DNA of 64,000 nt from Alphaproteobacteria bacterium (GCA_038145705.1 JAYQQF010000004.1:75523-139522), one strand, 5' to 3'; positions 2,252 through 24,563 are shown, counted from the stretch's first letter. Notes: a model not told the origin generated them from the letters alone. Numbers and translations are program-made.

Positions 2252-2255
2252 TCCC

Positions 2256-4972: not shown

Positions 4973-5169
4973 ATCGAAATCTGCTGTGGAAAACCTTGGT
5001 TTTTCAAGCCCCCGGCAAGATTGACGGGTTGACGGCCCCCGGCCTGGCCCCTTAGCTTTTGTCCGACAGGCATACAAGGGACCTTCCGGCGCATACAAAT
5101 ATCATTAAAGCCGGTACGGCAAGCCCTGCTCGGTCACCGCGTTCAAATTTTCGCAAACGGGAGGCACCT

Positions 5170-6207
5170 ATGCGAATCCACTCCACCACAGTCACCACGA
5201 CGGCCGCCCGCCTTGGCGTGGCGACCGGCCTTGCCGCCGCCTTCGCGATCGGCGCCTATGCGGGGTCCGCCATTGCCGCGGAAAAGTTCCCGACCAAGGA
5301 AATCCAGATCATCAGCCATGCCGCGCCCGGCGGCGGCACCGACGTCACTGCGCGCATGATGATGATCCGCTCGCGACGCGAACTGGCGAAGGGCAACCCC
5401 GAATACAAGGACACCGGCGCCGTCATCAACGTCGTCTACAAGCGCGGCGGTTCTGGCAAGGTCGCTCATGAATACCTGATGTCGCGCCCGGCCGACGGCC
5501 ACACCCTGATCGCGCTGACCCAGACACACTTCTACACGATCGCTCTCGGCAAGTCGCCGCTGAAGGGCCCGGAACTGGTCGGCGTGGCGCGCGCCATGGA
5601 CGATCCGACCTTCATCGTCGTCGGCAAGAACAGCAAGTACAAGACGATCGAGGAACTGATCGCCGCCTCCAAGGACAAGCCGCTGAACTGGGGCGTGTCG
5701 CAGATCGGCGGCACCGAACACGTCGGCCTTGCACGTTTCGCCAAGGCGGCAGGCATCAAGTTCAAGGTCGTGCCCTTCGGCTCCGGCGGCAAGATGGTGC
5801 AGGCGCTGCTGTCTAACGCCATCGACGCGACCCTGCCGAACGTTTCGGAAGCCGGCGGCCAGATCGAGGACGGCACGGTTCGCCCGCTGCTGCTGCTCGA
5901 CAAGGCGCGGCTGCCTGCCTACAAGAACGTCCCGACCAGCCATGAAAAGGGCTGGGCGCTGACGGTCACCACCACCCGCGGCTACGCGGTCAAGGCCGGC
6001 ACGCCGCCGGAAGTGATCAAGGCGCTGGAAAAAGGCATCCTGTCCGCGATGAAGCACGATGTCTTCGCGGGCTACCTGCGCTCCTCGGGCCTCGATCCGA
6101 AGACCAGCCCGGCCGGCTCCAAGGTCTGGACCGACCAGATCCAGGAAGAGATCAAGATCGCCCGCGAAGCGCTGGGCGAGCTCGGCCTTCTCAAGAAGAA
6201 GAAATAA
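5170..6207 (+). CDS. tctC: tripartite tricarboxylate transporter substrate-binding protein TctC (Bug family), with C-terminal KKKK
   Basis: Signal peptide followed by ISHAAPGGGTDVTARMM (the TctC signature). It precedes tctB/tctA, has a GGGAGG ribosome-binding site, and ends in LLKKKK. Confidence 0.8.
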   Translation: MRIHSTTVTTTAARLGVATGLAAAFAIGAYAGSAIAAEKFPTKEIQIISHAAPGGGTDVTARMMMIRSRRELAKGNPEYKDTGAVINVVYKRGGSGKVAHEYLMSRPADGHTLIALTQTHFYTIALGKSPLKGPELVGVARAMDDPTFIVVGKNSKYKTIEELIAASKDKPLNWGVSQIGGTEHVGLARFAKAAGIKFKVVPFGSGGKMVQALLSNAIDATLPNVSEAGGQIEDGTVRPLLLLDKARLPAYKNVPTSHEKGWALTVTTTRGYAVKAGTPPEVIKALEKGILSAMKHDVFAGYLRSSGLDPKTSPAGSKVWTDQIQEEIKIAREALGELGLLKKKK

Positions 6208-6228
6208 CGGAAGCCGGAGTATATTTCC

Positions 6229-6765
6229 GTGACCACCGGCAACGCCGGATCGACGGGTACGAAGGGCGCGCGCAAGAGCGCGCCCTTCGTTCACCGCACC
6301 GATCTCTGGATTACCATCATCATTCTCGTCGCCTGCGCGGCTCTCTGGTACGAGACCACGCGCTGGGACACCGTCGCCGCACAGCTGAGCCAGAATGTCC
6401 CGCCGACGTTCTTTCCGCGCATCATTCTGGGCTGCATCATGGCGATGTCGCTTTACCTGCCCTTTGAAAACTTCTTCAAGAAGAAGAAGGGCGCGGACCT
6501 CGATGAAGAACGGAGCAACAAGGTCGTTTCGATCACCTTCATCACGGCATTGGCGCTCGTTCTCATCGTCAGCCTGTTCGAATGGCTGGGCACCGACCTG
6601 AGCATGGTTCTCGCCTGCCTGCTGCTGCCGATCCTTTGGAACGAGCGGCGCCTCTGGGTGATCCTGCCCTTCGCCATCCTGTTCCCCCTCACCGTGCGGC
6701 TGATCTTCGTCAACGGCCTCAAGGTTCATTTCCTCCCCGGGCTCCTGGCCCCGATACTGGGATAG
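6229..6765 (+). CDS. tctB: TctB small membrane subunit of tripartite tricarboxylate transporter
   Basis: About 178 aa with 4 predicted TM helices, sitting between tctC and tctA. GTG start. Confidence 0.65.
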   Translation: MTTGNAGSTGTKGARKSAPFVHRTDLWITIIILVACAALWYETTRWDTVAAQLSQNVPPTFFPRIILGCIMAMSLYLPFENFFKKKKGADLDEERSNKVVSITFITALALVLIVSLFEWLGTDLSMVLACLLLPILWNERRLWVILPFAILFPLTVRLIFVNGLKVHFLPGLLAPILG

Positions 6766-6774
6766 CATCAGACC

Positions 6775-8286
6775 ATGGAACCGATTCTCGAGGGCATCGG
6801 CCTCATCCTCGTGCCCTACCATTTCTTCCTGATCCTGGTGGGCGTGCTGCTCGGCGTGCTCGTCGGCGCGCTGCCCGGCCTGTCGTCGACCATGGCCGTC
6901 GCCCTGCTGCTGCCGTTCACGCTGCAACTGCCGCCAATCCCGGCCATCGCCATGATGGCGGCGCTCTATTGCGCGGGCACCTTCGGCGGCTCGATCACCG
7001 CCATCCTGATCAACACCCCGGGCGCGCCGCCCGCGGTGGCGACGGCGCTCGACGGCTATCCGCTCGCCCAGAAGGGCGAGGCCGGACGCGCGCTCGGCAT
7101 CGCCGCGGTGTCGTCGGTCGTCGGCGGCATGTTCTCGCTGGTGGTGTTCATCCTGGCGGCACCGCTGCTCGCCAAGGTCGCGCTGTCGTTCCGCCCGCCC
7201 GAGTATTTCGCCCTGTCGCTGTTCGGCCTGTCGATGCTGGCCTCCATTTCCGGCAAGTCGTCGCTCAGGAACCTGATCGCCGGCGCCTTCGGCGTGCTGG
7301 TCTCGACCATCGGCGTGCACCTGACCACCGGCGTCGAGCGCTTCGTGTTCGGCGTGTCCGAATTCGTCGAAGGCATCAGCTTCGTGCCCGTGCTCATCGG
7401 TCTGTTCGCCATGGGCGAGCTGCTCAACCAGTCGCAGCGGCTCAACGAACATGTCGAGCGCATCAAGTCGGTCGCCATCAAGCTGCCGAGCTGGGCCGAG
7501 ATCGTGAAGCTGCGCTGGGTCATGCTGCGCTCGTCCATCATCGGCACCTTCATCGGCATTCTGCCCGCCGAAGGCTCCACCGTCGCCGCCATCATCGGCT
7601 ACAACGAGGCCAAGCGCTGGTCCAAGAACAAGTCGGAATTCGGCAAGGGCGCCATCGAAGGCATCGCCGGTCCGGAAGCCGCCAACAACGCCGCCACCGG
7701 CGGCGCCATGGTGCCGACACTGGCGCTCGGCATTCCGGGCTCGGGCACCACGGCGATCATCCTCGCCGCGCTGATGGTGCACGGCTTCCGTCCGGGCCCC
7801 TACCTGGTGCAGAACACGCCGCATTTCGTCTACGCGATCTTCACGGCGATGTTCCTCGCCAACATCCTGTTCCTGGTGATCGGCCTGCCGGGCGCCAAGC
7901 TGTTCGCGCGCATCACGCTGGTCAAGCGCCAGCTTTTGTGGCCCGCGGTGTTCGTGTTCTCGATGATCGGCGCCTACGCCTATCATCAGTCGGTGTTCGA
8001 CGTCTGGGTGATGCTGATCGCGGGCCTGCTCGGTTTCGTCATGCTGCGCCACGGCTTCGGCCCGGCGCCCTTCGTCATGGGACTGATCCTTGGCCGCCTC
8101 GTCGAGGAATTCTGGTCCCAGTCGATGATCATCTTCGACAACAACTGGTTCCGTTTCTTCGAAAGCTGGATCGTCGACCTGTTCCTGTTCTTCACCCTGC
8201 TCGGCTTCTTCGGACCGCTGATCTTCAAGGGCATCAACAGGATGGTCAGCCGCATGAAACCCGAAGGCCGCGTGCTGGAAGACTGA
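6775..8286 (+). CDS. tctA: TctA large membrane subunit of tripartite tricarboxylate transporter
   Basis: About 500-aa polytopic membrane protein with GAPPAVATALDGYPL and LALGIPGSGTTAIIL, both characteristic of TctA. Confidence 0.85.
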   Translation: MEPILEGIGLILVPYHFFLILVGVLLGVLVGALPGLSSTMAVALLLPFTLQLPPIPAIAMMAALYCAGTFGGSITAILINTPGAPPAVATALDGYPLAQKGEAGRALGIAAVSSVVGGMFSLVVFILAAPLLAKVALSFRPPEYFALSLFGLSMLASISGKSSLRNLIAGAFGVLVSTIGVHLTTGVERFVFGVSEFVEGISFVPVLIGLFAMGELLNQSQRLNEHVERIKSVAIKLPSWAEIVKLRWVMLRSSIIGTFIGILPAEGSTVAAIIGYNEAKRWSKNKSEFGKGAIEGIAGPEAANNAATGGAMVPTLALGIPGSGTTAIILAALMVHGFRPGPYLVQNTPHFVYAIFTAMFLANILFLVIGLPGAKLFARITLVKRQLLWPAVFVFSMIGAYAYHQSVFDVWVMLIAGLLGFVMLRHGFGPAPFVMGLILGRLVEEFWSQSMIIFDNNWFRFFESWIVDLFLFFTLLGFFGPLIFKGINRMVSRMKPEGRVLED

Positions 8287-9650
8287 TGGCGGGCGCGGCT
8301 TCGGTTGGGGCGGTTTCCCCGCAGACGGCGGCGCTCGCCGCCCACATGGCGGGGGCGGCGAAGGCGGCGCTTCCCGCCGGTGTCGCGGCCAAGACGCGGC
8401 TGCATATCCTCGACAGCCTTGCGGCGATGATCTCGGGCGCGCGCCTCAAGCCGGGTGAAATGGCGCTCGCGTTTGTTGCCGCCGAAGGAGCGCGGGCGGA
8501 GGTGCTTCTGCCCGGCACCGGGATCGAGACATCGGCGCGCCTCGCCGCACTCGCGGGCGGCATGATGGCGCACGCGGATGAAACCGACGATTCACACCCG
8601 ACCGCCTTCTTCCACCCCGGCTGCGCCATCGTGCCCGCCGCCTGGGCGATGGCGGAACGGGGCGGCGCGTCGGGCCGCGCTGTCGTCAATGCCGTGGCGC
8701 TCGGCTACGACGTGGGCGCGCGCATCAACCTGGCACTCGGCGTCGAGCGCTTCTACGGCAAGCAGGGCTTTTCGACCCACAGCTTCGGCGCCAAGTTCGG
8801 CGCGGCGGCAGCGGCCGGATCGCTCGCGGGACTGAACGCGGACCAGTGCCGCTGGCTCTTGTCTTACACGGCGCAGATGGCGTCGGGCCTCGGCTCATGG
8901 GCGCGCGATTCGGAACACGTGGAAAAGGCCTTCGACTTCGGCGGCATGGGCGCCGAGCACGGCGTTGCCGCGGCGCAGATGGTGGCCTCGGGCATGACCG
9001 GTGTGGAAGACGTCTTCACCGGCGAGCGCGGCTTCTTCCAGGCCTATGGCGGCAATCTCGACGAGATCGCGCGCGAGCTCGGCGCGACATACGAGATCAT
9101 GAACGCCAACATCAAGAAATGGACCGTGGGCTCCCCCTGCCAGGCGCTGCTCGATTCGCTCCAGCACCTGATGGCGGTTAACAACCTCGCGCCCGACGAC
9201 GTCGGCGCGGTCACCGCCCGCGTCCCGGCGGTCGAGGCCCATATCGTCGACGACCGCACGATGCCCGATATCTGCCTTCAGCACCTGATGGCGGTCCTGA
9301 TGATCGACGGCACGCTGACCTTCGCCTCGACCCACGATTACGAACGCATGAAGGATGCGCGCGTGCGCGCCTTGCGCCGGCGCATCAGGATGGTGGCCGA
9401 TCCCTCCCTGCCGCGGCGCGCCGGGGTGATCGAGCTGGAAAGCCCCAAGGCGGGCAAGCTCGCCCACGAAACCGTGCACGTGCGCGGCACCGCCCAGAAC
9501 CCGATGACCGAGGACGAAGTCGCCGCCAAGGCCCGCGACCTGATCGCCCCCATCCTCGGGGCAGACCGCACGGAAGCCCTGATCGGCAGGGTTCTGGCGC
9601 TCGAATCGGTGGCCGACCTGCGCGATCTGCGCTCCCTCACCCGCGCCTGA
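8286..9650 (+). CDS. MmgE/PrpD-family protein (2-methylcitrate dehydratase / cis-aconitate decarboxylase-like)
   Basis: Carries HADETDDSH and an MmgE/PrpD fold-like sequence. The ATG overlaps the tctA stop (TGATG). The long ORF-track entry 6582..9650 is a frame read-through; the true start is at 8286. Confidence 0.8.
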   Translation: MAGAASVGAVSPQTAALAAHMAGAAKAALPAGVAAKTRLHILDSLAAMISGARLKPGEMALAFVAAEGARAEVLLPGTGIETSARLAALAGGMMAHADETDDSHPTAFFHPGCAIVPAAWAMAERGGASGRAVVNAVALGYDVGARINLALGVERFYGKQGFSTHSFGAKFGAAAAAGSLAGLNADQCRWLLSYTAQMASGLGSWARDSEHVEKAFDFGGMGAEHGVAAAQMVASGMTGVEDVFTGERGFFQAYGGNLDEIARELGATYEIMNANIKKWTVGSPCQALLDSLQHLMAVNNLAPDDVGAVTARVPAVEAHIVDDRTMPDICLQHLMAVLMIDGTLTFASTHDYERMKDARVRALRRRIRMVADPSLPRRAGVIELESPKAGKLAHETVHVRGTAQNPMTEDEVAAKARDLIAPILGADRTEALIGRVLALESVADLRDLRSLTRA

Positions 9651-10421: not shown

Positions 10422-11534
10422 TCAGGAAAATTCCCGGCGGATGGCGTCGGTGTGCCGGCCAACCTCGGGCACGGGGCCGGGCGCGAAGTCGCGTCCGCGC
10501 GCGGGCGGCGCCGGCATGTCGACGGGACCCGTGGGCGTCTCGACGCGGATGCGGGAAAGCTGCGGGTGCTGCGATAACCCGTCGACGCCGTTGACCATGC
10601 CGTAGGCCGTTCCCGCCGCATCGAGGCGTTTGGTGAGTGCCGCCCGGTCGAGCGCCTCGAACACCCCGGCGACGATGGCATCGAGCGCGCCTCGGTGTTC
10701 GACCCGCGCCGTATTGTCGCGAAAACGCGGATCGGCGGCGATGGCGGCATCGTTCAACACGCCCGCACAGAAGGACCGCCATTCGCGTTCGTTCTGGATC
10801 GAAATCAGCACCACGCCGTCCCTGTAAGGATACGCGCCGTAGGGCGCGATGGACGGGTGATTGAGCCCGGTGCGCGCCGGTGCTTTCCCGCCGTAATCGA
10901 AATGCAGGAGCGGCACGGTCATCCAGTCGGCCATGGCGGCGAACAGCGAGATGTCGATCCGCCGCCCCTCGCCCGTTCGCTCCCGCGCGATCAGCGCTTC
11001 GAGAATTGCCGCATGGGCCTGCTGGCCCGCCGCGATATCGGCGACCGATACGCCGACACGGGCCATGCCCTCGGGCGTGCCGGTGATCGACGACAGGCCC
11101 GATTCAGCCTGCACCAGGAGATCATAGGCCTTCATCCGCGCATACGGCCCGTCCTCGCCGTAGCCGGTGACCGAACAAGTGATGAGCCGCGGATATTTCG
11201 CCCGCAGATCGTCCGCGCCGAAACCGAGGCGGGCCGCCGCACCTGGCGCCAGGTTCTGGATGAAGACATCGGCGCGCGCCACCATGCGTGCGAGCAGCGC
11301 GCGGTCGGCATCGTCCTTCACGTCGAGGACGACCGATTCCTTGCCCCGGTTGAGCCAGACGAAGTAGGCGCTTTCGCCATGCACGACGCGGTCGTAATGG
11401 CGGGCGAAGTCGCCTCCCTCGCGCTCGATCTTGATGACGCGCGCGCCCGCATCGGCGAGGCGCGAGGTGCAATAGGGTGCCGCCACCGCCTGTTCGAGGG
11501 CCACCACCAGAATGCCGTCGAGCGCGCCCGCCAT
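10422..11534 (-). CDS. CoA-transferase family III (CaiB/BaiF)
   Basis: N-terminal LDGILVVALEQAVAAPYCTSRLADAGARVIKIE is the classic family III CoA-transferase N-terminus. About 370 aa. Confidence 0.85.
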   Translation of the reverse strand: MAGALDGILVVALEQAVAAPYCTSRLADAGARVIKIEREGGDFARHYDRVVHGESAYFVWLNRGKESVVLDVKDDADRALLARMVARADVFIQNLAPGAAARLGFGADDLRAKYPRLITCSVTGYGEDGPYARMKAYDLLVQAESGLSSITGTPEGMARVGVSVADIAAGQQAHAAILEALIARERTGEGRRIDISLFAAMADWMTVPLLHFDYGGKAPARTGLNHPSIAPYGAYPYRDGVVLISIQNEREWRSFCAGVLNDAAIAADPRFRDNTARVEHRGALDAIVAGVFEALDRAALTKRLDAAGTAYGMVNGVDGLSQHPQLSRIRVETPTGPVDMPAPPARGRDFAPGPVPEVGRHTDAIRREFS

Positions 11535-11543
11535 GTCGCCCCG

Positions 11544-12695
11544 TCAGTAGGAGCGCGGCAGGCCGAGCACGTGCTCGGCCACGTAGGACAGAATCATGTT
11601 GGTCGAGATCGGCGCGGTGCGGTAAAGCCGCGCCTCGCGGAACTTGCGCTCGACGTCGAATTCCTCGGCGAAGCCGTAGCCGCCGAAGGTCTGCATGCAG
11701 GTGTCCGCCGCTTCCCACGATGCTTCCGAGGCGAGAAGCTTCGCAAGGTTCGCTTCCTCGCCGCAGCGCTCGCCCGCATCGAACAGGGCGGCGGCGCGTT
11801 CCACCATCAGGGCGGCGGCGCGCATCTGCGCGTAGGCGCGCGCGATCGGGAACTGCACGCCCTGGTTCTGGCCGATGGGACGGTTGAAGACCCTGCGGGT
11901 TTTCGCGTAATCGCCGGCGCGCGCCACGAACCACCGCGCATCGCCGATGCATTCGGCCCCGATCAGAATGCGCTCGGCATTCATGCCGTCGAGGATGTAG
12001 CGGAAGCCCTTGCCCTCCTCGCCGATCAGGTTGGCGGCGGGCACGCGCAGGTTGTCGATGAACACCTCGCAGGTGGCGTGGTTGATCATCGTCGGAATGG
12101 GCCGGATCTCAACGCCGTTGCCGCGCGCTTCGCGCAGATCGACGATGAACACGGAGAGGCCCTCGGTCCGGCTCGGCGCGTCTTCCTTCGCCGTCGTGCG
12201 CGCCAGCAGCAGCAGCAGGTCGGAATGCTCCGCCCGCGACGTCCACACCTTGGAGCCGTTGACGACGTAATGATCCCCGTCCCTGACCGCGCGCGTGCGC
12301 AGCGAAAGGGTATCGGTGCCGCTTTCGGGTTCGGTCACGCCGAAGGCCTGAAGACGAAGCCGCCCGGCGGCGATCTCGGGCAGATAAGATTTCTTCTGGG
12401 CGTCCGATCCATGCCGCAGGATCGTGCCCATCGTGTACATCTGGGCATGCGCTGCGGCGCCGTTGCAGCCGGACGCCTGGATTTCCTCCATGATCGCCGC
12501 GGCCTCCCTGAGGCCGAGGCCGGACCCGCCGTAGGCTTCCGGGATCAGGCAGGCGAGCCAGCCGCCCGTCGTCAGCGCATCGACGAACTCGCGCGGATAG
12601 CTGCGCGCGCGGTCGTGCTCGCGCCAGTATTCGCCCGGAAAACCGGCACAGAGCGCGCGAATTTGCTCGCGGATTTCGGAGAAGTCTCCGCTCAT
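11544..12695 (-). CDS. acyl-CoA dehydrogenase family protein
   Basis: Carries TEPESGTD, FGGYGF and C-terminal ARLYRTAPISTNMILSYVAEHVLGL. Start at internal Met MSGDFSEI, which overlaps the upstream gene's stop as ATGA. Confidence 0.85.
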   Translation of the reverse strand: MSGDFSEIREQIRALCAGFPGEYWREHDRARSYPREFVDALTTGGWLACLIPEAYGGSGLGLREAAAIMEEIQASGCNGAAAHAQMYTMGTILRHGSDAQKKSYLPEIAAGRLRLQAFGVTEPESGTDTLSLRTRAVRDGDHYVVNGSKVWTSRAEHSDLLLLLARTTAKEDAPSRTEGLSVFIVDLREARGNGVEIRPIPTMINHATCEVFIDNLRVPAANLIGEEGKGFRYILDGMNAERILIGAECIGDARWFVARAGDYAKTRRVFNRPIGQNQGVQFPIARAYAQMRAAALMVERAAALFDAGERCGEEANLAKLLASEASWEAADTCMQTFGGYGFAEEFDVERKFREARLYRTAPISTNMILSYVAEHVLGLPRSY

Positions 12696-13612
12696 GCGAG
12701 GCTGCCTGATGGAAAGAATCCCTCGAATGCGGCGAGCACGAGGTCGGGACATTGTTCGGCCGGGTAATGACCGGACGGAATGGGCCGGTAGGTCACTTCG
12801 TCGGGATCGGCGACCCACTGGTTCCATGCCGCCGGCGGGTCCGAATGACGGCCGACGTGGGAGTTTTCCCCCCACAGAACCAGCAGCGGGCAGTCGATCT
12901 TCTTCCCCGCCTTGAAGTCGGCTTCGTCCATCGGGAAATCGACATGGAGGGTGGCGCGGTAGTCTTCGCACACCGCATGGATGTTTTCCGGCGTGCAGCA
13001 GCGCACGTATTCGGCCATCGCCTCGTCGGTGAAGGGGCCGAGACCGACGCCCTTCTTGTTCAGCTTCTTGCGGATGTAATAGTCGAGATCAAGCGACAGG
13101 AAATGCTCGGGAAAGTCGAAGGGCTGGGCCATGAAGAACCAGTGATAGGATTCTTCCGCCCAGCCCATCGGAATATCGGCGAGCAGCTGGTAGGTCGGCA
13201 TGATGTCGAGGAGCGCCAGCCGCGCGACTTTTTCCGGACAATCGAGCGCCATGCGGTGGCCAACCCGCGCGCCGCGGTCGTGACCGGCAACGTAGAAGCG
13301 GTCGAAGCCGAATTTCGCCATGACCTCGACCTGGTCGCGGGCCATGGCGCGGAAGGAATAATTGACGCTGTTTTCGCCGCCTTCGGGCTTCGACGAATCG
13401 CCGTAGCCGCGCAGGTCGGTCGCGATCACCGTGAAATTTTCGGCGAGCTTCGGCGCGACCTTGTGCCAGCTGACATGGGTCAGCGGATTGCCGTGCAACA
13501 GCAGGAGCGGCGGGCCGTCGCCCCCGCGAAGCGTGCGGATCACCGCACCGGACGTTTCAATATCGGATTGCTCGAACCCTTCGAACACAGCGGCCCCCTT
13601 GATCTCGGCCAC
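12692..13612 (-). CDS. alpha/beta hydrolase (haloacetate dehalogenase / epoxide hydrolase-like subgroup)
   Basis: PLLLLHGNP, GHDRGARV nucleophile elbow and HYPAEQCP. About 306 aa. Confidence 0.75.
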   Translation of the reverse strand: MAEIKGAAVFEGFEQSDIETSGAVIRTLRGGDGPPLLLLHGNPLTHVSWHKVAPKLAENFTVIATDLRGYGDSSKPEGGENSVNYSFRAMARDQVEVMAKFGFDRFYVAGHDRGARVGHRMALDCPEKVARLALLDIMPTYQLLADIPMGWAEESYHWFFMAQPFDFPEHFLSLDLDYYIRKKLNKKGVGLGPFTDEAMAEYVRCCTPENIHAVCEDYRATLHVDFPMDEADFKAGKKIDCPLLVLWGENSHVGRHSDPPAAWNQWVADPDEVTYRPIPSGHYPAEQCPDLVLAAFEGFFPSGSLA

Positions 13613-13636
13613 TATATCCGCTCGCGGCGCAGGGGC

Positions 13637-14476
13637 CTAGCCGCGCGCCGAACCCTTGGCGACGGGACGCGCCGGGTCGGCGGACCAGGCCGACCATGAG
13701 CCGACGTAGAGCGGCGCCTCGATCCCGGCGGCATACATGGCCGCAAGCTCGTGGGCGGCGGAATTGCCGCTGCCGCAATAGACGCCCACCGGCTGCTTGC
13801 CGTTGACGCCGAGCGCTGCGAAATGCGCGCGCAGGTCCTCGGTCGATTTGAAGCACCCGTTGGCGCCGATCGCGCCCGCCGCAGGCGCGCAGACGGCACC
13901 CGGGATATGGCCGGTGGCGGGCTTGTCGGCCTCGCCCTCATAGGCCGCCTTGCCGCGCGCATCCAGAAGCGCGCCTTCGCGCGCGATGCGGGCGGCATCG
14001 TCGGCCTCGATCGTCGGCATGCTGCCGGGCGATACCTTGAAGCTGCCGTTGCCCGTGGCATGGACGGGCTGGTCGGCGACCGCATGGCCCGCCGCCTTCC
14101 ACGCCGCAAGGCCGCCATCGAGCAGGCGCACGTTGCCGTGCCCCGCCCAGCGCAGGGTCCACCACGCGCGGCCGGCCTGGGCGCCCGACGCATTGTCGTA
14201 GACGACGACGAGGGTATCGGCATTGATGCCCCAGCGCCGCACGTTCTCCTGCAACGCCGCCGCATCGGGCAGCGGGCGGCGGCCGCCCGTCTTCGTCGCC
14301 GCACCCGACAGGTCGGAAGCGAGCGAAACCGCCATCGCGCCGGCAATCACCGGGCGTTCAAGCGGCGCCGTATCGAGATCGTCGCTGGCGTCGAGAAGGA
14401 CGACATTTTCCTTGGCGGCAATGCGTGCCGCAAGGTCGCCTACCGAGATGAGGACGCTTGCGCGGGGATCGCTCAT
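13637..14476 (-). CDS. sseA: two-domain rhodanese: thiosulfate/3-mercaptopyruvate sulfurtransferase (SseA-like)
   Basis: Two rhodanese domains with the active-site loop VYCGSGNSAAHELAA (CGSG). Confidence 0.8.
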   Translation of the reverse strand: MSDPRASVLISVGDLAARIAAKENVVLLDASDDLDTAPLERPVIAGAMAVSLASDLSGAATKTGGRRPLPDAAALQENVRRWGINADTLVVVYDNASGAQAGRAWWTLRWAGHGNVRLLDGGLAAWKAAGHAVADQPVHATGNGSFKVSPGSMPTIEADDAARIAREGALLDARGKAAYEGEADKPATGHIPGAVCAPAAGAIGANGCFKSTEDLRAHFAALGVNGKQPVGVYCGSGNSAAHELAAMYAAGIEAPLYVGSWSAWSADPARPVAKGSARG

Positions 14477-14483
14477 TCCCGCC

Positions 14484-15362
14484 TCACGCCGTCATCGTGC
14501 AGCGATAGAGGATGCGCGTGGCGCTACCCGTGTAGTCCTTGATCGCGCGGTGCTGCACAACCCGGTTGTCCCACACGGCAAGGGCGCCCTGCTGCCATTC
14601 GACGCGGCAGGTCGCCTCGGGCGACTTGATCATGTCGAACAGGATGCCGAGGATGTTCTGGCTGTGAACGCGGCTGACACCCTTGATGTAGCAGACGTAG
14701 GATTCGTTGATCGCCACCCACTTGCGCCCCGACACCGGGTGCACGCGAATCAGCGGCATTTCGAACGGCGGCATGCGCAGGCGGGCCTGGGCGGCCTCCT
14801 CGGGATCGAGGTAGCGATCGGTGATGTGCCCGGTGGCGTCGGGCGATTGGACGACCTTGAGGGTTTCGAGATACTGCGCGAACAGCGGATCGAGCATGTC
14901 ATAGACATGGGCCGCGTTCGAGAACATCGTGTCGCCGCCCAGATCGGGGATATGCTTGCCGAACAGCGCGGTGAAGGCCGGCGCGTCGGCGCGGAAACCG
15001 CCGTCGGCATGCCAGACGTGGTTGCGAAGATGGGCATCCTTGGCGGCGCTGATCACGGTCGCATCGGGATTTTCGGGCGCGCGCGGCGTGTGCGGACCGG
15101 CATAGTTGAAGAACTCGCCGAGGAAGCCCGCAAACTTCGTGAAGTTTTCGGCCGTCACCGTGCCCGGCTCGAAGACGACGAGGCCGCGCGTGTGCAGCAG
15201 CTCGCGCATGGAAGCACGGAAGTCATCGGACACCGTGTTGCCGTCGAAGCGATAACCGGAAATGTAGGAGCCAACCGCCGGCTTGATCGCCTTGACCCGG
15301 ACGCCCGCGGGGACCGGAATGGAATCGTTCGCCAGGTGAAGAGAGGGATTTGCAGACGCCAT
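14484..15362 (-). CDS. TauD/TfdA-family 2-oxoglutarate-dependent dioxygenase
   Basis: HVWHADGGF and WDNRVVQHRA are the family motifs. Start at internal Met MASANPSLH of ORF 14484..15752. Stop lies 7 nt before the sseA-like start. Confidence 0.8.
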   Translation of the reverse strand: MASANPSLHLANDSIPVPAGVRVKAIKPAVGSYISGYRFDGNTVSDDFRASMRELLHTRGLVVFEPGTVTAENFTKFAGFLGEFFNYAGPHTPRAPENPDATVISAAKDAHLRNHVWHADGGFRADAPAFTALFGKHIPDLGGDTMFSNAAHVYDMLDPLFAQYLETLKVVQSPDATGHITDRYLDPEEAAQARLRMPPFEMPLIRVHPVSGRKWVAINESYVCYIKGVSRVHSQNILGILFDMIKSPEATCRVEWQQGALAVWDNRVVQHRAIKDYTGSATRILYRCTMTA

Positions 15363-15581
15363 TTTCGAAGCCTTTCCTGCCCTTTTACATATGTGCCGAC
15401 CGGCAACATACCATTTCTTGGGCCGTTCTAGTGCAAAAGCCCGCACCCTGCAACCGGCCCCGAAATCCGACGGTTTCCGGGTTTCTGCTCGTGGTGAAGA
15501 ATTATTACTGACCGGGGCCGGGGGAAGGTTTATCACCTGAATCCCGCCTGGTTTCAGGTCCCCTTTCCCGATCGAACCCTG

Positions 15582-16382
15582 ATGGCCGAACTCTTCCCGC
15601 CGGACCTCGCTCCGTTCCATGGCCTGAGCGCCGTCCAGATCGTCGCCCTGATGGCGATCTACGGCATTCTCGCGAGCGTGCGCGGGGCGCTTGGGTTCGG
15701 TGCGGTGGCGCCAACCATCGTTTTTTCCTCGATCATCCTGGAACCCCATCACGCGGTCATGCTGGCGCTGGCGACGGGCACCTGGGCGCAGGCGCAGATC
15801 GCGCCCTTCGGCCTGAAATACGGCGACTGGAAACTAGTCAAGCCGCTGCTGCTGTCGAGCATGGTCGCCATTACCATCGGCACCATCATTTTCGAAAAGC
15901 TGGAACCGGGCTGGCTCACCATTTTCCTCGGCATCGCGATGCTGGGAATTGCGATGATGGACCGCTACAGAATGCTCGACCGGCTGGCGCAAAGGGTCGA
16001 CCTGACCCGCTTCGACGTGGCGCTCGGCCTGTCGTCGGTCAGCGGCCTGATCGCAGGCGTCGCTGGCGGCGGCGGCATGTACTTGCTGTCGGTTTACCTG
16101 AAGCTCGCCTGCCCGACGCCGACGCTGTTTCGCGGCACATCCATCCTGATCGGCGCCATCATCCTGTTCTGGCGGCTGGCGGTATCTATCGCCATCGGGC
16201 TGGTGTCCTGGCGGCTCGTGGTCGAATCGCTGTTCCTGCTGCCGCTGTCGCTCGCGGGCGCCTGGGCCGGCATTAGGTTCTTCCACCGAGCCGACGCGAA
16301 GCGATTCTACAACGCCTTCCAGATCGTGCTGATGGTGGGCGCGCTCATCCTGCTGTGGAAGGGCGTCAACCGGGTGTTTTGA
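15582..16382 (+). CDS. TauE/SafE-family sulfite exporter (DUF81) membrane protein
   Basis: Eight or so TM helices with an internal repeat and a glycine-rich GVAGGGGMYLLSVYL. Divergent from the TauD-like operon. Confidence 0.8.
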   Translation: MAELFPPDLAPFHGLSAVQIVALMAIYGILASVRGALGFGAVAPTIVFSSIILEPHHAVMLALATGTWAQAQIAPFGLKYGDWKLVKPLLLSSMVAITIGTIIFEKLEPGWLTIFLGIAMLGIAMMDRYRMLDRLAQRVDLTRFDVALGLSSVSGLIAGVAGGGGMYLLSVYLKLACPTPTLFRGTSILIGAIILFWRLAVSIAIGLVSWRLVVESLFLLPLSLAGAWAGIRFFHRADAKRFYNAFQIVLMVGALILLWKGVNRVF

Positions 16383-16734
16383 CTCCCGCCCCTTCCACCG
16401 TCACCTCGATGAGACGATTGGCCGGACGTTCCCTGCACGACAGTTCGATCGCCGCGCGCAGAACTTCCGCCGTTGCTGCATCTTTCACCCGTACCGTAAC
16501 GGGCGTGCCCAGCACTCCCGCGCGGTAGGATGCGGCCCCAAGGGTGTTGATGGCGAAGGACACAAGCTCGCGCGCGTCCACTGCCGTGCCGCTCGGAGCG
16601 GGCTCGGCTACATTCAGACGTGGGCGATGGAGGAAATGGTCACGCTGCTTGGCCTTCTCCAGAACCCTGGCGAAGGCATCCTTCATTCGGGTGCGGATTG
16701 CAACCTGGCTGTTGTTGTCGGTGTGCAGGCTCAT
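16366..16734 (-). CDS. hypothetical protein (122 aa)
   Basis: Internal Met of ORF 16366..17577, preceded on its own strand by cAGGAGGcagca-ATG, a strong ribosome-binding site. No family recognised. Its 3' end overlaps the tauE 3' end by 17 nt. Confidence 0.5.
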   Translation of the reverse strand: MSLHTDNNSQVAIRTRMKDAFARVLEKAKQRDHFLHRPRLNVAEPAPSGTAVDARELVSFAINTLGAASYRAGVLGTPVTVRVKDAATAEVLRAAIELSCRERPANRLIEVTVEGAGVKTPG

Positions 16735-20080: not shown

Positions 20081-21472
20081 TTACCGGCTATTGGCGAAAA
20101 AACCGCCGCGCACGGCCTCGTCGAACAGATACGCCGCAACCGGTGCGATACCCAGCGGCAGCGAGGGACCATCGGGTTCCATGTAGATGTGGCTGCCCGC
20201 ATCGATCATCGTCAAATGTACCCGCGGCGCGGGACGTAGGGCTTCCAGCATCGGAATGACGACGGCACGAAAAGCCTCCTCGGAGTTATCCCGGCTGAAG
20301 CGCGAGTTGACGAAGTAGATGGGCGGCACCGGACGTGCGTCCCTGCCTGTGCGGTAGCGCCCGTAATCGAGATAGCGTTCGACCAGCGCGCGTGTTTCCG
20401 CCCGCCCGAGGCCGAGCCGGCGCGCCGCGACGCGGGCGGCTTTTGCCAAAGTGCCATCGACATTGTGGGTGACGGGGAATTCAGCCTTGAACTGCGGGCG
20501 CAGCCGCTCCTCTTGCCAGCCGTCCAGGATTTCTTCCATGAGCCAGGGCAGGCGCATCAGCGCCGCGGCACCTTCGCGCCCCAGCGCCTCGGGCCCCGAA
20601 TAGCGCGCCCGGTCGCGCCAGGTACGCAGATAAAGATCGGTGAAGGGATCGTGCAGGACGTCGTCGGGCTCCCTCGGACCGGCCTTGGCGTAGCCCTTGA
20701 TCTTGCCCATTGAACCGGACCACGCGTGCTTGGCGCGGTTGATGACGCCGATGGGCGCGGTTTCCACTTCGGTCTGGCCCGCGCAGTTCTCCAGCCGCTG
20801 GCTCAGGATCGCGGTGAAGGCACCGCCTGTCGAATGGCCATGCAGGTGAACCGAGTATTCGTCGACAGGAAAGTGCCGTCGGCAGGCTTCGAGCATTCCA
20901 TCTTCAAAGGCCACCGGCCAGGCCGCCATGCGTTCGTAAAACAATGTTCCCGGACGCGCGCGCGCGAAAGTGCGGATGCCGTACCGGGCCCGCAGCTTGT
21001 CGTCCCGGACTAGGTCGTACTGATCGCGGGTGATGACTTCGCCCTTTTTCCAGAGCGGCATGCGGGCCAACCCGTCGGCCTCGATGGTGTCTCCGGGCCA
21101 GTCCCGGGACGGATCTGGAAGGTAGAGCCGGCCCGGAAAAGTCATCGACACGATCTTGTAGCCGAAGCGCTGGCTGAGCAGCAGCGCCAGCGCTTCGACC
21201 GACTTGTAATCGCCGTTGCCCCCATGCAGCAGAAAGAAACCGGCCTTGCGGCCATCGGCTCCGCGTGTGACCGGGCCGGCCGGGGTGTAGGTCATGACGC
21301 CGATATCCCAGTCGAGACCGAGCGCGGATATACGAAAGACATCCTCCCGCTGCACGATCTTGCGCCTGCGCCGGCCCATCACCGAACGCGAGAGCGTTTC
21401 AGCCCGCTCCCTGGTGATTTCCGAGGGCAGGCCTGCCCCCGTTTTCACCGCAGATTTACCCCGCTTCGCCAT
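20081..21472 (-). CDS. alpha/beta-hydrolase-fold protein with about 200-aa C-terminal extension
   Basis: FFLLHGGNGD (oxyanion HGG) and HLHGHSTGG (GxSxG nucleophile). GGAGGA lies 7 nt before the ATG. Function unknown. Confidence 0.55.
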   Translation of the reverse strand: MAKRGKSAVKTGAGLPSEITRERAETLSRSVMGRRRRKIVQREDVFRISALGLDWDIGVMTYTPAGPVTRGADGRKAGFFLLHGGNGDYKSVEALALLLSQRFGYKIVSMTFPGRLYLPDPSRDWPGDTIEADGLARMPLWKKGEVITRDQYDLVRDDKLRARYGIRTFARARPGTLFYERMAAWPVAFEDGMLEACRRHFPVDEYSVHLHGHSTGGAFTAILSQRLENCAGQTEVETAPIGVINRAKHAWSGSMGKIKGYAKAGPREPDDVLHDPFTDLYLRTWRDRARYSGPEALGREGAAALMRLPWLMEEILDGWQEERLRPQFKAEFPVTHNVDGTLAKAARVAARRLGLGRAETRALVERYLDYGRYRTGRDARPVPPIYFVNSRFSRDNSEEAFRAVVIPMLEALRPAPRVHLTMIDAGSHIYMEPDGPSLPLGIAPVAAYLFDEAVRGGFFANSR

Positions 21473-21715: not shown

Positions 21716-23026
21716 ATGAAAATCGTCCGGAAAATACGTAACTATTCTATGGCAGTGCTTGCCATGACGTCTGGTTTTGCTTTGGCAGCCCATGCCGATG
21801 CAATTTCTGACTTCTACAAAGGCAAGGATATCGTGGTCTATGTCGGCTCCGGCCCCGGGGGCGGGTACGACACCTACGCCCGCATGATGGGCCGCCACAT
21901 GGGCCGCCACATCCCAAGCAACCCCAACTTCATCGTCAAGAACATGGATGGCGCGGGTTCGATCATCGCTGCCAACTATGTCTATAACGTCGCCCCCCAG
22001 GACGGCACCGTGATCGCGGCGTTGCAGCGCAACGCACCCATCGTGCAGATCATGGGCCAGAAGGGCCCGAAGTTCGAGGCGACCAAGTTCAACTGGCTCG
22101 GCAGCTTCAACAACGAAGTCGGCATCATTGCCGTTGCCAAGCGGACCGGCGTCAAGAAGTTCGAGGACCTGTACGGAAAGGAAGTGCTGTTCGGCTCTAC
22201 CGGCCCGAACGACACGGAATTCTATCCTGCGCTGATCGCCAACACGCTGGCGGCGAAGGTCCGCCTGATCAAGGGCTATCCGTCCACGCCGCCGACCCAT
22301 CTCGCGATGGAGCGCGGCGAGGTCGATGCAATCAGCCAGTCCTGGGCGTCCTTCACGCACCAGTCGAACCTCTATTCGAAGGGCGAGATGGTGCTGCTGG
22401 CCCAGCTGTCGCTGAAGCCGCTGCCCGAACTCAAGGCCAAGGGCGTACCGCTGCTGATGGATCTCGTCGACGAGAAGCACCTGCAGCCCGGGTACACCAA
22501 GGAGCAGGTTCAGACACTCTACCGCCTGCTGATGGCAACCAAGACGATGGGCCGTCCCTTCGCGCTTGGCCCCAAGGTTCCGGCCGACAAGGTCAAGGTT
22601 CTGCGTACCGCCTTCAACAAGACGACCGAAGACAAGAAGTTCGTCGATGAGGCCAACAAGCAGAGCCGCGACCTCAGCCTCGTCACCGGCGATGAAATCC
22701 AGGACATCGTCGAGAAAATGGCCTCGGCTCCCAAGGAGGTTCTTGAAAAGCTCGAATACGTGAGCCAGTGGCACGGCCCGGTCAAGACCGCCAAGGTCGA
22801 GATTCCGAAGCACACCGGCAAGATCACCAAGATCGAAAAAGGTGGGCGCAAGATCACCGTCGATGCCGAAGGCAAGAAGGTATCGGCGAAGATTTCCGGC
22901 TCGCGCACCAAGATCAAGGTGGGCGGCAAGGCCGCCAAGCGTTCGGCATTCAAGGAAGGCATGACGTGTTCGATCAGCCTGCCGCCCGGCTCCAAGGAAG
23001 CCACGGCAGTCGACTGCAAGGGCTGA
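21716..23026 (+). CDS. TctC/Bug-like periplasmic solute-binding protein paralogue with about 85-aa Lys-rich C-terminal extension
   Basis: Signal peptide, DFYKGKDIVVYVGSGPGGGYDTYARMMGRHMG (Bug-like phosphate/carboxylate clamp), then an extra C-terminal domain HGPVKTAKVEIPK...CSISLPPGSKEATAVDCKG. Family assignment is distant. Confidence 0.55.
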   Translation: MKIVRKIRNYSMAVLAMTSGFALAAHADAISDFYKGKDIVVYVGSGPGGGYDTYARMMGRHMGRHIPSNPNFIVKNMDGAGSIIAANYVYNVAPQDGTVIAALQRNAPIVQIMGQKGPKFEATKFNWLGSFNNEVGIIAVAKRTGVKKFEDLYGKEVLFGSTGPNDTEFYPALIANTLAAKVRLIKGYPSTPPTHLAMERGEVDAISQSWASFTHQSNLYSKGEMVLLAQLSLKPLPELKAKGVPLLMDLVDEKHLQPGYTKEQVQTLYRLLMATKTMGRPFALGPKVPADKVKVLRTAFNKTTEDKKFVDEANKQSRDLSLVTGDEIQDIVEKMASAPKEVLEKLEYVSQWHGPVKTAKVEIPKHTGKITKIEKGGRKITVDAEGKKVSAKISGSRTKIKVGGKAAKRSAFKEGMTCSISLPPGSKEATAVDCKG

Positions 23027-23199: not shown

Positions 23200-24507
23200 A
23201 TGCGTTTCACCCACATCATGACCGCTGCTGCAGCCCTGTGCGGCATGTTTGCAGCAGGCCCTGCCTCTGCCGATGCCATTGCCGATTTCTACAAGGGCAA
23301 GCGTATCCAGTTGCTGGTCGGTTCCGGCCCGGGCGGCGGCTACGACGTCTATGCGCGCATGCTGTCGCGCCACATGGGCCGCCATATCCCCGGCAACCCG
23401 GGCTTCCTCGTGAAGAACATGGAAGGCGCCGGCTCGATCGTCATGGCGAACTACGTCTTCAACGTCGCGCCCAAGGACGGCTCCGTGATCGCCGGCATGC
23501 AGCGCAACGCGGCGATGGCCGAGTTGATGGGCCAGAAGGGTCCGAAGTTCAAGTCGGTCGAACTCAACTGGCTGGGCAGCCTTGCCGACGAACCGGGCGC
23601 CTGCGCCATTGCCACGCGCACCAACGTCAAGTCGTTCGAAGAAGTCTTCACCCGCACCTTCATCATGGGTGGCACGGGCCCGAACGACACCGAAATCAAC
23701 CCGGCGCTCATCAATAACGCGCTCGGCGGCAAGTTCCGCCTGATCAAGGGCTATCCCTCGACGCCGCCTATCCACCTCGCGATCGAGCGCGGTGAAGTGG
23801 ACGGCATCTGCCAGTCTTGGGCGTCGCTCAGCGATCAGGGCGGCCCGATGATCCGTGCGGGCACGCTGAAGCCGATCATCCAGCTGACCATCAAGCCGGT
23901 GCCTGAACTCTCCAAGATGGGCGTGCCGACCATTTTCGACGTGATCAAGACCGGCAAGCACCTCGGTGCCGGCGTCACCCAGGAAGAGGCTTCCGCCTAC
24001 TTCCAGATCCTGATGGGCGTGCGCGTCATGGGTCGCCCGTTCGCGATGGCGGCAAAGGTCCCGGCCGACCGCGTCAAGGCGATGCGCGTGGCTTTCGATG
24101 CCACCGCCAAGGACGCCCAGTTCCAGGCAGAAGCGAAGAAACTCAAGCGTGACGTGGACCTCATCACCGGCGACGAAATCCAGAAGATCGTCGCCGAAAT
24201 GGCGGCCCAGCCCAAGTCGGCGCTGGCCAAGCTCGACGACATGCTGAAGTTCAAGGGCCCCACCCAGACCGCCAAGGTCGAACAGCCCAAGTTCTCGGGC
24301 AAGATCTCGAAGGTCATCGAGGGCGGGCGCAAGATCGCGCTCAGCGTCGGCGGCAAGGACGTGCAGACCGGCATTTCCGGTTCGCGCACCAAGATCACCG
24401 TCGCCGGCAAGGCGGCCAACCGCAGCGCTTTCAAGGAAGGCATGGAGTGCAACGTCACCCTGCCGAACGAAGGCGCCAAGGAAGCCGCCAACGTGGACTG
24501 CAAGTAG
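23200..24507 (+). CDS. TctC/Bug-like periplasmic solute-binding protein paralogue with the same Lys-rich C-terminal extension
   Basis: Tandem paralogue of the previous gene: ADFYKGKRIQLLVGSGPGGGYDVYARMLSRHMG, C-terminal FKGPTQTAKVEQPK...CNVTLPNEGAKEAANVDCK. GGGAG ribosome-binding site. Confidence 0.55.
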   Translation: MRFTHIMTAAAALCGMFAAGPASADAIADFYKGKRIQLLVGSGPGGGYDVYARMLSRHMGRHIPGNPGFLVKNMEGAGSIVMANYVFNVAPKDGSVIAGMQRNAAMAELMGQKGPKFKSVELNWLGSLADEPGACAIATRTNVKSFEEVFTRTFIMGGTGPNDTEINPALINNALGGKFRLIKGYPSTPPIHLAIERGEVDGICQSWASLSDQGGPMIRAGTLKPIIQLTIKPVPELSKMGVPTIFDVIKTGKHLGAGVTQEEASAYFQILMGVRVMGRPFAMAAKVPADRVKAMRVAFDATAKDAQFQAEAKKLKRDVDLITGDEIQKIVAEMAAQPKSALAKLDDMLKFKGPTQTAKVEQPKFSGKISKVIEGGRKIALSVGGKDVQTGISGSRTKITVAGKAANRSAFKEGMECNVTLPNEGAKEAANVDCK

Positions 24508-24528: not shown

Positions 24529-24563
24529 AAAAACGGGTGGCCGGACCGGCCACCCGTTTTTCT
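24529..24563 (+). terminator. rho-independent terminator after Bug-like tandem
   Basis: Perfect 12-bp palindrome acgggtggccgg-a-ccggccacccgt followed by ttttt. Confidence 0.7.

Follow-up and report, generated by a model that had tools for sequence, protein, structure and literature searches.

A fluoroacetate-dehalogenase-family hydrolase gene coupled to a methylsuccinyl-CoA-type dehydrogenase gene in a proposed composite alphaproteobacterial operon

Introduction

What might an operon do that joins genes for (i) a TauD/TfdA-family Fe(II)/2-oxoglutarate dioxygenase (TauD-like), (ii) a two-domain rhodanese, (iii) an alpha/beta hydrolase of the fluoroacetate dehalogenase (FAcD) family, (iv) an acyl-CoA dehydrogenase (ACAD), and (v) a family-III (CaiB/Frc) CoA-transferase, with a gene for a TauE/SafE (TSUP) membrane protein transcribed divergently from it? 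We address this question for a 64,000-nucleotide stretch of DNA from an Alphaproteobacteria bacterium (GCA_038145705.1, JAYQQF010000004.1:75523-139522), hereafter the window, in which the five minus-strand genes lie within 15362-10422 (Table 1). An earlier note on this DNA had taken the ACAD for a sulfinate-CoA desulfinase and the operon for a pathway that degrades a sulfonated or sulfinated carboxylic acid with release of sulfite. We replace that attractive but, we are confident, wrong assignment with a testable one to the methylsuccinate/itaconate family of enzymes. Tentatively, we read the operon as a lineage-specific composite of three modules that also exist independently, probably acting on substituted C4/C5 dicarboxylates. 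The part of it that is conserved among relatives pairs a complete FAcD-type hydrolase with the ACAD, the CoA-transferase and the TSUP protein. Loci compared with the window are cited by L numbers.

Results

Gene layout of the operon

From the TauD-like gene through the rhodanese, hydrolase and ACAD genes to the CoA-transferase gene, the intergenic gaps are 7, 24, -4 (an ATGA overlap) and 9 nt. Open reading frames (ORFs), translations and junction sequences agree with the earlier note, whose gene calls, family names, operon-like packing and divergent TauE all held up against the ORF calls, the junctions and Pfam. The hydrolase gene has an alternative GTG start at 13588 that gives the 298-aa form called in relatives, and the second gap is then 48 nt. 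Because simple scans of the five-gene block found no internal terminator-like or promoter-like sites above shuffled controls, we take the five genes by default to form a single transcription unit. The 219-bp divergent region contains no match to the sigma-70 consensus. It does contain a 10-nt inverted repeat (ACCTGAATCC-N5-GGTTTCAGGT, 15535-15559), 23 nt upstream of the TauE start. We rejected this repeat as an operator, as it is not conserved in relatives and is present only in contigs identical to the window. The Pfam scan covered about 28 window proteins, about twenty genes beyond 37.7 kb lying outside it. About 24 proteins were searched against the NCBIfam equivalog models, and none received an equivalog-level assignment.

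The ACAD resembles methylsuccinyl-CoA dehydrogenases

The window ACAD is 61.5% identical to Pseudomonas aeruginosa PA0879 over 382 of its 383 residues, and the two have in common the GxNAER and APISTN motifs and an LPRS[YF] C-terminus. Identity is 63.7% to the ACAD of a Ralstonia cluster and 71% to that of a Mesorhizobium itaconate-type cluster. PA0879 and its Cupriavidus necator homologue (Q0K3E4) are biochemically proven (RS)-methylsuccinyl-C4-CoA dehydrogenases (PMC12290011), and genetic evidence indicates that growth on methylsuccinate requires PA0879 (PMC9875883).

The earlier note had let its desulfinase claim hang on the active-site base. At the position of the canonical YEG glutamate, the window ACAD reads APISTN and has no glutamate (Ala361-Pro362 at the 366-type position). 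A gap-free alignment over 132 residues pairs its Glu241, part of the motif GMNAER, with Glu254 of human isovaleryl-CoA dehydrogenase (IVD; fragment checked against 1IVH), the residue that serves as the catalytic base of that enzyme (Glu286 in precursor numbering; PMC12369846). IVD offsets the lost YEG glutamate by this other glutamate, whereas the desulfinase, with the motif AGG, uses a different chemistry (PMC8360864). Across 15 homologues of 74-97% identity, neither Glu241 nor Arg242 varies. The desulfinase AcdDPN7 (EC 3.13.1.4), as reportedly described by Schurmann et al. in 2015, has a base at neither position (Gln246 at the IVD-type position and Gly366). In this enzyme Arg84 positions the sulfino group. 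Model and structure searches gave 193.4 bits for the window ACAD against the NCBIfam desulfinase model NF042439 (cut-off 600) and 125.6 bits against the desulfinase structure 5AF7/5AHS, which ranked 58th of 59 PDB matches; the best ordinary ACAD scored 200.9 bits. On NCBIfam the protein falls below every equivalog cut-off, and the models for acryloyl-CoA reductase (AcrC) and non-decarboxylating glutaryl-CoA dehydrogenase outscore the desulfinase model.

In the model of the earlier note, an ACAD like AcdDPN7 of Advenella mimigardefordensis or AcdA of Variovorax paradoxus TBEA6 would act together with the CoA-transferase to degrade a sulfonated or sulfinated carboxylic acid, with TauE as the exporter of the sulfite. 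The TauD-, rhodanese- and TauE-family genes nearby fit that model, as does the missing YEG glutamate, which the window ACAD shares with both desulfinases. It was also correct that known 3-sulfinopropionyl-CoA desulfinases adjoin a family-III CoA-transferase: acdA and act are the adjacent ORFs VPARA_05440 and VPARA_05450 in V. paradoxus TBEA6 (PMC6370202). The window ACAD likewise has such a neighbor, at a distance of 9 nt. This adjacency does not discriminate, because it also defines itaconate/methylsuccinate, benzylsuccinate and glutarate systems. Unlike AcdDPN7 and AcdA, the window ACAD has a glutamate at the alternative base position, a low similarity to 5AF7, and a true dehydrogenase as its nearest characterized relative. 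The family to which it belongs occurs in itaconate-type clusters, and in all but two of 80 sampled genomes it has no sulfur genes next to it (see below). No 3-mercaptopropionate dioxygenase is apparent among the Pfam-scanned window proteins, although no search was aimed at it. Invariant Glu241, the identity to PA0879 and the model scores all run contrary to the claim, which fails the test that the earlier note had set for it. We therefore hold with confidence that the ACAD is not a desulfinase, and regard the model built on it as very improbable. By sequence, the protein would instead be classed as a methylsuccinyl-CoA-type dehydrogenase.

The ACAD and CoA-transferase pair belongs to a widespread family

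The window CoA-transferase is 48.8% identical to the itaconate CoA-transferase PA0882 (Ict) over 375 aa and 55% identical to its Mesorhizobium homologue, and carries the JGI label itaconate CoA-transferase. Asp167, in the motif S(V/I/A)ADIA(A/T)G, is kept in 4 of 4 aligned CoA-transferases. A tblastn search of annotated plasmid records returned the canonical PA0878-PA0883 cluster on a P. aeruginosa replicon (L174), with genes for MaoC_N/Ich, ACAD, a VOC protein, MmgE/PrpD, CaiB/Ict and a CoA ester lyase. On the Mesorhizobium plasmid pMspAR02b the order is LysR-ACAD (the 71% homologue)-oxidoreductase-CaiB-MaoC_N-CoA ester lyase-PrpD, and Chelatococcus pCO-6 is similar.

The ACAD family is very common, with 8000 database matches, many of them 75-88% identical to the window protein; this recently characterized methylsuccinate/itaconate family of ACAD and CoA-transferase pairs is very widespread in Alphaproteobacteria. 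We sampled 80 representative genomes with an ACAD 69-76% identical to that of the window. A CoA-transferase gene adjoins the ACAD gene in about half of them, and the commonest further neighbors of the pair are genes for a 284-aa or 291-aa hot-dog hydratase and for HIBADH-like or SDR dehydrogenases. The hydratases of 284 and 282 aa that were sampled (Bradyrhizobium L025, and L053) share 34-47% identity with Ich. Beside the pair, 78 of the 80 genomes showed no homologue of the TauD-like protein, rhodanese, hydrolase or TauE; the exceptions are L053 and L072.

A neighbor-joining tree places the hydrolase-linked ACADs (window, L001, L089, L169, L170, L095, L092, L094 and L171) in one clade, nested within the Ich/Ccl-linked family. 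Only two positions, T124E and F340Y, set this clade apart, and a change in the substrate of the ACAD is therefore not indicated.

The hydrolase keeps the complete FAcD active site

The best PDB matches of the hydrolase are 3QYJ (NOS0089/Alr0039; 314 bits), 9C9F (279 bits) and RPA1163 (3R3U; 260 bits). Alignments to these three structures show that it keeps 8 of 8 FAcD residues: Asp112, Arg113, Arg116, Asp136, His157, Trp158, Tyr218 and the histidine of a GH motif. The equivalents of the two arginines are reported to bind the substrate carboxylate in the RPA1163 and FA1 structures. Asp112, the GH histidine and Asp136 align with the RPA1163 triad of Asp110, His280 and Asp134, while Arg113/Arg116 and His157/Trp158/Tyr218 match Arg111/Arg114 and His155/Trp156/Tyr219; the roles of the catalytic and leaving-group-pocket residues in FAcDs have been described (PMC11022551). 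NOS0089/Alr0039 takes fluoroacetate, difluoroacetate and 2,2-difluoropropionate as substrates (PMC11022551). Triad, arginine pair and His/Trp/Tyr pocket are thus identical to those of RPA1163 (Rhodopseudomonas palustris), NOS0089/Alr0039 (Nostoc) and FAc-DEX FA1, and by sequence the window protein is a full member of the family. Unlike the genes of characterized FAcDs, its gene is translationally coupled to that of a dicarboxylyl-CoA dehydrogenase and divergent from that of a TSUP protein.

Is the operon, then, one for haloacids? The hydrolase would in that case be a true haloacetate or 2-haloacid dehalogenase and TSUP the importer of the haloacid; the CoA-transferase and ACAD would oxidize the carbon skeleton or act on beta-halo acids by CoA-dependent elimination, with the TauD-like and rhodanese genes as unrelated passengers. 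This idea draws on the complete catalytic and halide-pocket residues, on nearest solved homologues that are experimentally active defluorinases, on the JGI label of the window protein (haloacetate dehalogenase), and on (chloro)aromatic-type genes in the region, which encode a dienelactone hydrolase, an FAD ring hydroxylase, an MR_MLE protein and a bicupin dioxygenase. Against it, a scan of the window at Rfam gathering thresholds found no riboswitch of any kind, hence no fluoride riboswitch, and there is no CrcB-type fluoride channel or fluoroacetyl-CoA thioesterase among the Pfam-scanned proteins (up to 37.7 kb). The FAcD cluster of Caballeronia S22, the one described cluster of this kind that we found, contains genes for an aconitate methyltransferase, a fluoroacetyl-CoA thioesterase and CrcB; the context of the window hydrolase differs, with no fluoride-resistance genes found nearby. 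Moreover, haloacetate and halopropionate would yield glycolate and lactate, which are not ACAD substrates.

The relatives of the hydrolase also point elsewhere. Homologues of 61-68% identity recur in a cluster of the form [ABC permease]-PdxA-like-PrpD-like-hydrolase-(four-domain rhodanese)-IsoDH-like, often with TctA and with ABC or Tct transporters (examples are L103, L114, L115, L121, L135, L143, L147, L151 and L160). PrpD is found at 40 of 66 metagenome loci, IsoDH at 27, PdxA at 21 and the four-domain rhodanese at 13. This setting suggests a natural, non-halogenated polycarboxylate as substrate, and together with the points above it leaves a dedicated haloacid operon doubtful in our view. 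We found no published description of the PdxA-PrpD-hydrolase-rhodanese-IsoDH cluster, and a literature search for fluoroacetate dehalogenase together with rhodanese returned nothing relevant. Natural organofluorines are rare, and the conserved dicarboxylate and sulfur contexts seen here supply concrete candidate substrates for FAcD-like enzymes in nature. Hydrolysis of trans-epoxysuccinate or of an itaconate epoxide was considered as a role and set aside as pure conjecture.

A conserved core of TSUP, hydrolase, ACAD and CoA-transferase

All six genes occur in identical order in a 97%-identical relative (L001) and in a metagenome contig that is cut at both ends (L089), and all six are present in a different arrangement in L095. 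The co-occurrence in other genomes that the earlier note had proposed to look for was thus found in these three loci and is otherwise incomplete. TSUP is divergent from the hydrolase in L169, L170, L095, L090, L091 and L096, with or without the TauD-like and rhodanese genes, and in L169, L170 and L095 (ACAD 80-87% identical) it is divergent from the whole hydrolase-ACAD-CoA-transferase block. The hydrolase, ACAD and CoA-transferase genes are also kept in L092 and L094, with an Iso_dh gene between those of hydrolase and ACAD; no TSUP was detected on these two contigs. Hydrolase homologues of 73-83% identity lie divergent from TSUP (L090, L091, L096), beside ACAD-CoA-transferase with a convergent aldolase-like gene (L092, L094), or in both settings (L095).

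The TauD-like and rhodanese genes are mobile within this clade. They are absent from L169 and lie beyond TauE with a UbiD gene in L095; L170 has TauD without the rhodanese, and L171 has TauD-UbiD-ACAD. Only in the window, L001 and L089 do they stand at the 5' end of the operon. What is conserved as a core is therefore the hydrolase-ACAD-CoA-transferase block with TSUP divergent from it. A complete FAcD-type enzyme coupled to a methylsuccinyl-CoA-type dehydrogenase, and paired with TSUP across a clade, was unexpected.

Could the operon be an accidental juxtaposition, in which three unrelated modules have come under one promoter in this lineage and share no pathway? Each module does occur on its own: the TauD-like and rhodanese genes in a cobalamin cluster (L087), the ACAD and CoA-transferase genes with Ich and Ccl, and the hydrolase gene with PrpD, PdxA and IsoDH. 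The six-gene set is moreover limited to close relatives (in order in L001 and L089, rearranged in L095). Against accident stand the ATGA overlap of hydrolase and ACAD, which is kept in L001 and L169, and the hydrolase-ACAD-CoA-transferase block, which survives rearrangements down to 80% ACAD identity. The combinations also recur in separate ACAD clades. In L128 and L129 a hydrolase homologue lies 5 kb from an ACAD-CoA-transferase pair, and the ACAD there falls among beta- and gammaproteobacterial sequences. Hydrolase and pair are here co-localized for a second time, independently. TauD-rhodanese, for its part, lies near such a pair in L053 and L072. We consider accidental juxtaposition unlikely.

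A UbiD-family decarboxylase gene adjoins the TauD-like gene in L095 (2521-4161; TauD-Rhod-UbiD), L170 (3687-5327; TauD-UbiD) and L171 (7304-8944; TauD-UbiD-ACAD). We rejected UbiD as a partner of the operon, as it has no homologue in the window.

The TauD-like and rhodanese genes form a separate cassette

The TauD-like protein scores 149.5 bits against the NCBIfam taurine dioxygenase model (cut-off 313) and 120 and 107 bits against two solved TauD proteins, about equal to its score against RdpA. Aligned with Escherichia coli TauD, it keeps the HxD...H iron ligands and two C-terminal arginines (WHADGGF, QHRA and R-x3-R), which match TauD His99, Asp101, His255 and Arg266/Arg270. TauD His70 aligns to a glycine, in an uncertain stretch. 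The protein thus resembles TauD, AtsK, Rv3406 and RdpA in fold, iron ligands, the 2-oxoglutarate-binding arginine and the anion-binding arginine. No tauABC genes adjoin its gene, and it is not a TauD orthologue. Homologues of 70-85% identity, all 290-292 aa long, are common in metagenomes.

The best solved relative of the rhodanese is E. coli SseA (1urh, 97 bits). Against the NCBIfam 3-mercaptopyruvate sulfurtransferase model it scores 113.9 bits (cut-off 250); its active-site loop is CGSGNS, compared with CG[ST]GVT of the SseA type, and the second substrate-binding arginine of SseA is unaligned.

A rhodanese gene 7-12 nt after the TauD-like gene is also found in the unrelated contexts L087, L088 and L178, where the surroundings are a cobalamin cluster (L087) or an adjoining PabB-like gene (L088, L178). 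In L053 and L072, two Rhodospirillaceae metagenome-assembled genomes, the two genes lie 2-3 kb from an ACAD-CoA-transferase-Ich block whose ACAD belongs to a different clade. Unlike TauD, the TauD-like gene is tied to a rhodanese gene as a two-gene unit, an arrangement that to our knowledge is undescribed for TauD. We interpret the pair as an autonomous two-gene cassette, inserted at the 5' end of the operon in this lineage. Homologues in L176 and L177 (70-72% identical) have an aldehyde-oxidase-family enzyme and an SsuA/TauA-type binding protein in place of the rhodanese, an arrangement that fits an aldehyde-producing reaction on a sulfonate-like substrate.

Any release of sulfite would be due to the TauD-like enzyme rather than the ACAD. 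The link to sulfur that the earlier note had drawn accordingly loses its desulfinase part, and it may still run through the mobile TauD-rhodanese cassette and TSUP, outside the conserved core.

As a side observation, a gamma-glutamyltranspeptidase gene lies within 5-9 kb of the TauD-rhodanese pair in two unrelated loci (L053, 5695-9909; L087, 16537-20879). One of the two also has a gene for an M20 peptidase, and the other has two glutathione S-transferase (GST) genes and a metallo-beta-lactamase-fold gene. These neighbors hint at processing of glutathione conjugates.

Discussion

How could the modules work together? What the sequences show is the gene structure, the families, the conserved catalytic residues and the synteny. 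The scheme below, with its substrates, order of steps, CoA donor, direction of transport and role of the rhodanese, is one that we infer. Module A (CoA-transferase and ACAD) would be the activation and dehydrogenation pair of a branched C5-dicarboxylate (itaconate/methylsuccinate) pathway. The CoA-transferase would move CoA, most likely from succinyl-CoA, onto one carboxyl of a methylsuccinate-like dicarboxylate, and the ACAD, with FAD and Glu241 as base, would convert the thioester to an enoyl-CoA like mesaconyl-C4-CoA; hydration by Ich and cleavage by Ccl would be supplied in trans. Module B would be the FAcD-type hydrolase, translationally coupled to the ACAD and divergent from the TSUP permease. 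Its Asp112 would attack the alpha-carbon of a carboxylate bound by Arg113 and Arg116, while His157, Trp158 and Tyr218 would hold the small anion that leaves, and hydrolysis of the ester intermediate would then give a 2-hydroxy acid. In module C, the TauD-like enzyme would hydroxylate a carbon that bears a sulfonate-type substituent, and the rhodanese, together with TSUP, would deal with the sulfur anion that is released. Taken together, the operon would serve the use or detoxification of short dicarboxylic or carboxylic acids with halo or sulfur substituents at the alpha position or in a side chain: the hydrolase or the dioxygenase would remove the substituent, and the carbon skeleton would be oxidized as a CoA ester.

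Several points weigh against this reading. A tblastn search with three Ich and two Ccl queries (E <= 1e-3) found no homologue of either in the 64-kb window, and module A is therefore incomplete in cis. Ich and Ccl have been called pathway-specific enzymes (PMC12290011) and may lie elsewhere in the genome. The neighboring PrpD is only 26-27% identical to the methylsuccinate isomerase PA0881 and its Mesorhizobium homologue; at 26% identity to PA0881 we ruled it out as a methylsuccinate isomerase and regard it as a distant paralogue. The TauD-like protein fails the TauD equivalog cut-off, and TSUP proteins are functionally heterogeneous. No regulator gene adjoins the operon, and co-transcription of the five genes is our default assumption from the sequence. 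We know of no described pathway that links haloacetate-type hydrolase chemistry to methylsuccinate oxidation. Finally, the organisms behind the island-bearing loci are probably related to one another, and the synteny may partly reflect inheritance rather than selection.

The closest known system is PA0878-PA0883 of P. aeruginosa (ich, methylsuccinyl-C4-CoA dehydrogenase, 2-hydroxyparaconate lactonase, methylsuccinate isomerase, ict and ccl), with its counterpart in C. necator. As in that system, the ACAD and CoA-transferase genes of the window are adjacent, with genes for a PrpD-family protein and a carboxylate transporter in the vicinity. Unlike it, the window lacks the VOC lactonase in addition to Ich and Ccl, and has instead the dehalogenase-type hydrolase, TauD-like dioxygenase, rhodanese and TSUP. 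The pair thus belongs to the itaconate/methylsuccinate family by sequence, whereas the cluster is not a canonical itaconate cluster, because Ich and Ccl are missing from the window and PrpD is a distant paralogue. Each protein can be assigned to a known family, and the ACAD-CoA-transferase pair has a characterized relative. What is new is that a dehalogenase-type hydrolase is coupled to an orthologue of methylsuccinyl-CoA dehydrogenase and to TSUP, a linkage of which we found no description in the literature; nor did we find a paper with the full gene combination, which the earlier note had likewise not recognized as described.

A more speculative idea, and in our judgment a long shot, is that FAcD-family hydrolases of this type may cleave C-S (or other C-X) bonds in alpha-substituted acetate or succinate derivatives. 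Candidate substrates, with the rhodaneses and TSUP taking part, may include sulfoacetate, sulfosuccinate, thiomalate, and sulfite or thiol adducts of fumarate and itaconate. Such cleavage would explain the links of the hydrolase to four-domain rhodaneses and to PrpD/PdxA/IsoDH hydroxy-dicarboxylate enzymes in soil metagenomes, its link to the methylsuccinyl-CoA dehydrogenase module, and the arrival of the TauD-rhodanese cassette. If true, the idea would add a new chemistry of desulfonation or desulfuration, and a widespread enzyme family that is known only as defluorinases would gain a natural function.

Other features of the window

The remaining genes of the region are listed in Table 1 below the operon. 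At the CoA-transferase end of the operon, the aldolase-like gene and the CoA-transferase gene are convergent, and their stop codons abut at 10421/10422 with zero spacer. A homologue of 67-70% identity holds the equivalent convergent position in L092, L094, L095 and L170, and an Aldolase_II gene occupies it in L169; the gene is missing from the 97%-identical L001. The TctCBA-PrpD block flanks the operon in L001 and L169 as well. The four-domain rhodanese of the window shares 62% identity with its homologue next to the Aldolase_II gene of L170. Its identity to the four-domain rhodaneses encoded after hydrolase homologues at the 13 metagenome loci is about 38%. Most neighborhood genes recur, rearranged, in L001, L169, L170 and L171.

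Table 1. Operon, divergent TauE gene and neighboring features, in window coordinates
Feature	Position	Strand	Family match or remark
TauD/TfdA-family Fe(II)/2-oxoglutarate dioxygenase, 292 aa	14484-15362	-	Pfam TauD, 154 bits
Two-domain rhodanese, 279 aa	13637-14476	-	Pfam Rhodanese, 88 bits, 2 stretches; loop CGSGNS
FAcD-family alpha/beta hydrolase, 306 aa	12692-13612	-	Pfam Abhydrolase_1, 101 bits; GTG start
ACAD, 383 aa	11544-12695	-	Three Pfam Acyl-CoA_dh domains; PA0879 relative, orthologue level
Family-III (CaiB/Frc) CoA-transferase, 370 aa	10422-11534	-	Pfam CoA_transf_3, 350 bits; Ict relative
Divergent intergenic region, 219 bp	15363-15581	.	Presumed promoter region of both transcription units
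TauE/SafE (TSUP) membrane protein, 266 aa	15582-16382	+	Pfam TauE PF01925, 65.4 bits (cut-off 32.6)
Class II aldolase/adducin-family protein, 230 aa	9729-10421	+	Pfam Aldolase_II, 97 bits; ends TctCBA-PrpD-AldII unit
TctC-TctB-TctA tripartite transporter genes, then MmgE/PrpD-family gene (8286-9650)	5059-9650	+	Pfam
Four-domain rhodanese, ~539 aa	3353-4972	-	Pfam Rhodanese, 4 stretches; one Cys loop, VVNCAGRTRS
MR_MLE enolase-superfamily gene, overlapping second TauD-family gene	2226-3356	+	Pfam
Second TauD-family dioxygenase	1385-2251	+	Pfam
Zn-dependent dehydrogenase	142-1338	+	Pfam ADH_zinc
122-aa ORF, converging on TauE with 17-nt 3'-end overlap	16366-16734	-	No family match
Bicupin, 380 aa	17522-18664	-	Weakly gentisate/5-aminosalicylate dioxygenase-like
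Large GAF/PAS histidine kinase	31351-34596		
tRNA-Glu (anticodon CTC)	61025-61100	-	Sole RNA gene detected in the window

At the far end of this side, the trio of ADH_zinc, TauD-family and MR_MLE genes recurs by Pfam in L001 and L169, and no member reaches an NCBIfam equivalog cut-off. L170 keeps the second TauD-family gene (69% identical) and an ADH_zinc gene.

Beyond TauE lie the 122-aa ORF, AhpC, the bicupin gene, a Na/H exchanger gene, and three paralogues that weakly resemble solute-binding proteins. The 122-aa ORF is conserved at 34-48% identity in L169 and L170, and it is among the genes called on L085, a contig identical to the window. The stretch 24537-31230 contains genes of aromatic-catabolism type, for a dienelactone hydrolase, an ornithine cyclodeaminase (OCD)-family protein, an Amidohydro_2 protein and an FAD aromatic-ring hydroxylase. 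We considered a (chloro)aromatic, tfd-like island made up of TfdA-like, MR_MLE, dienelactone hydrolase (DLH) and ring-hydroxylase genes, and rejected it, as all scores were far under the family cut-offs.

The paralogues number five to six in all and are up to about 460 aa long. Three are at 20081-21472 (-), 21716-23026 (+) and 23200-24507 (+), and further copies are at about 36653-37639 (+), 57973-58875 (-) and 59319-60284 (-), the last two found by tblastn only. Pfam gave no match for the three at 20-24.5 kb or the one at 36.6-37.7 kb. Their sole family signal is a weak similarity to TAXI-type TRAP solute-binding proteins, and the copy number is unusually high for 64 kb.

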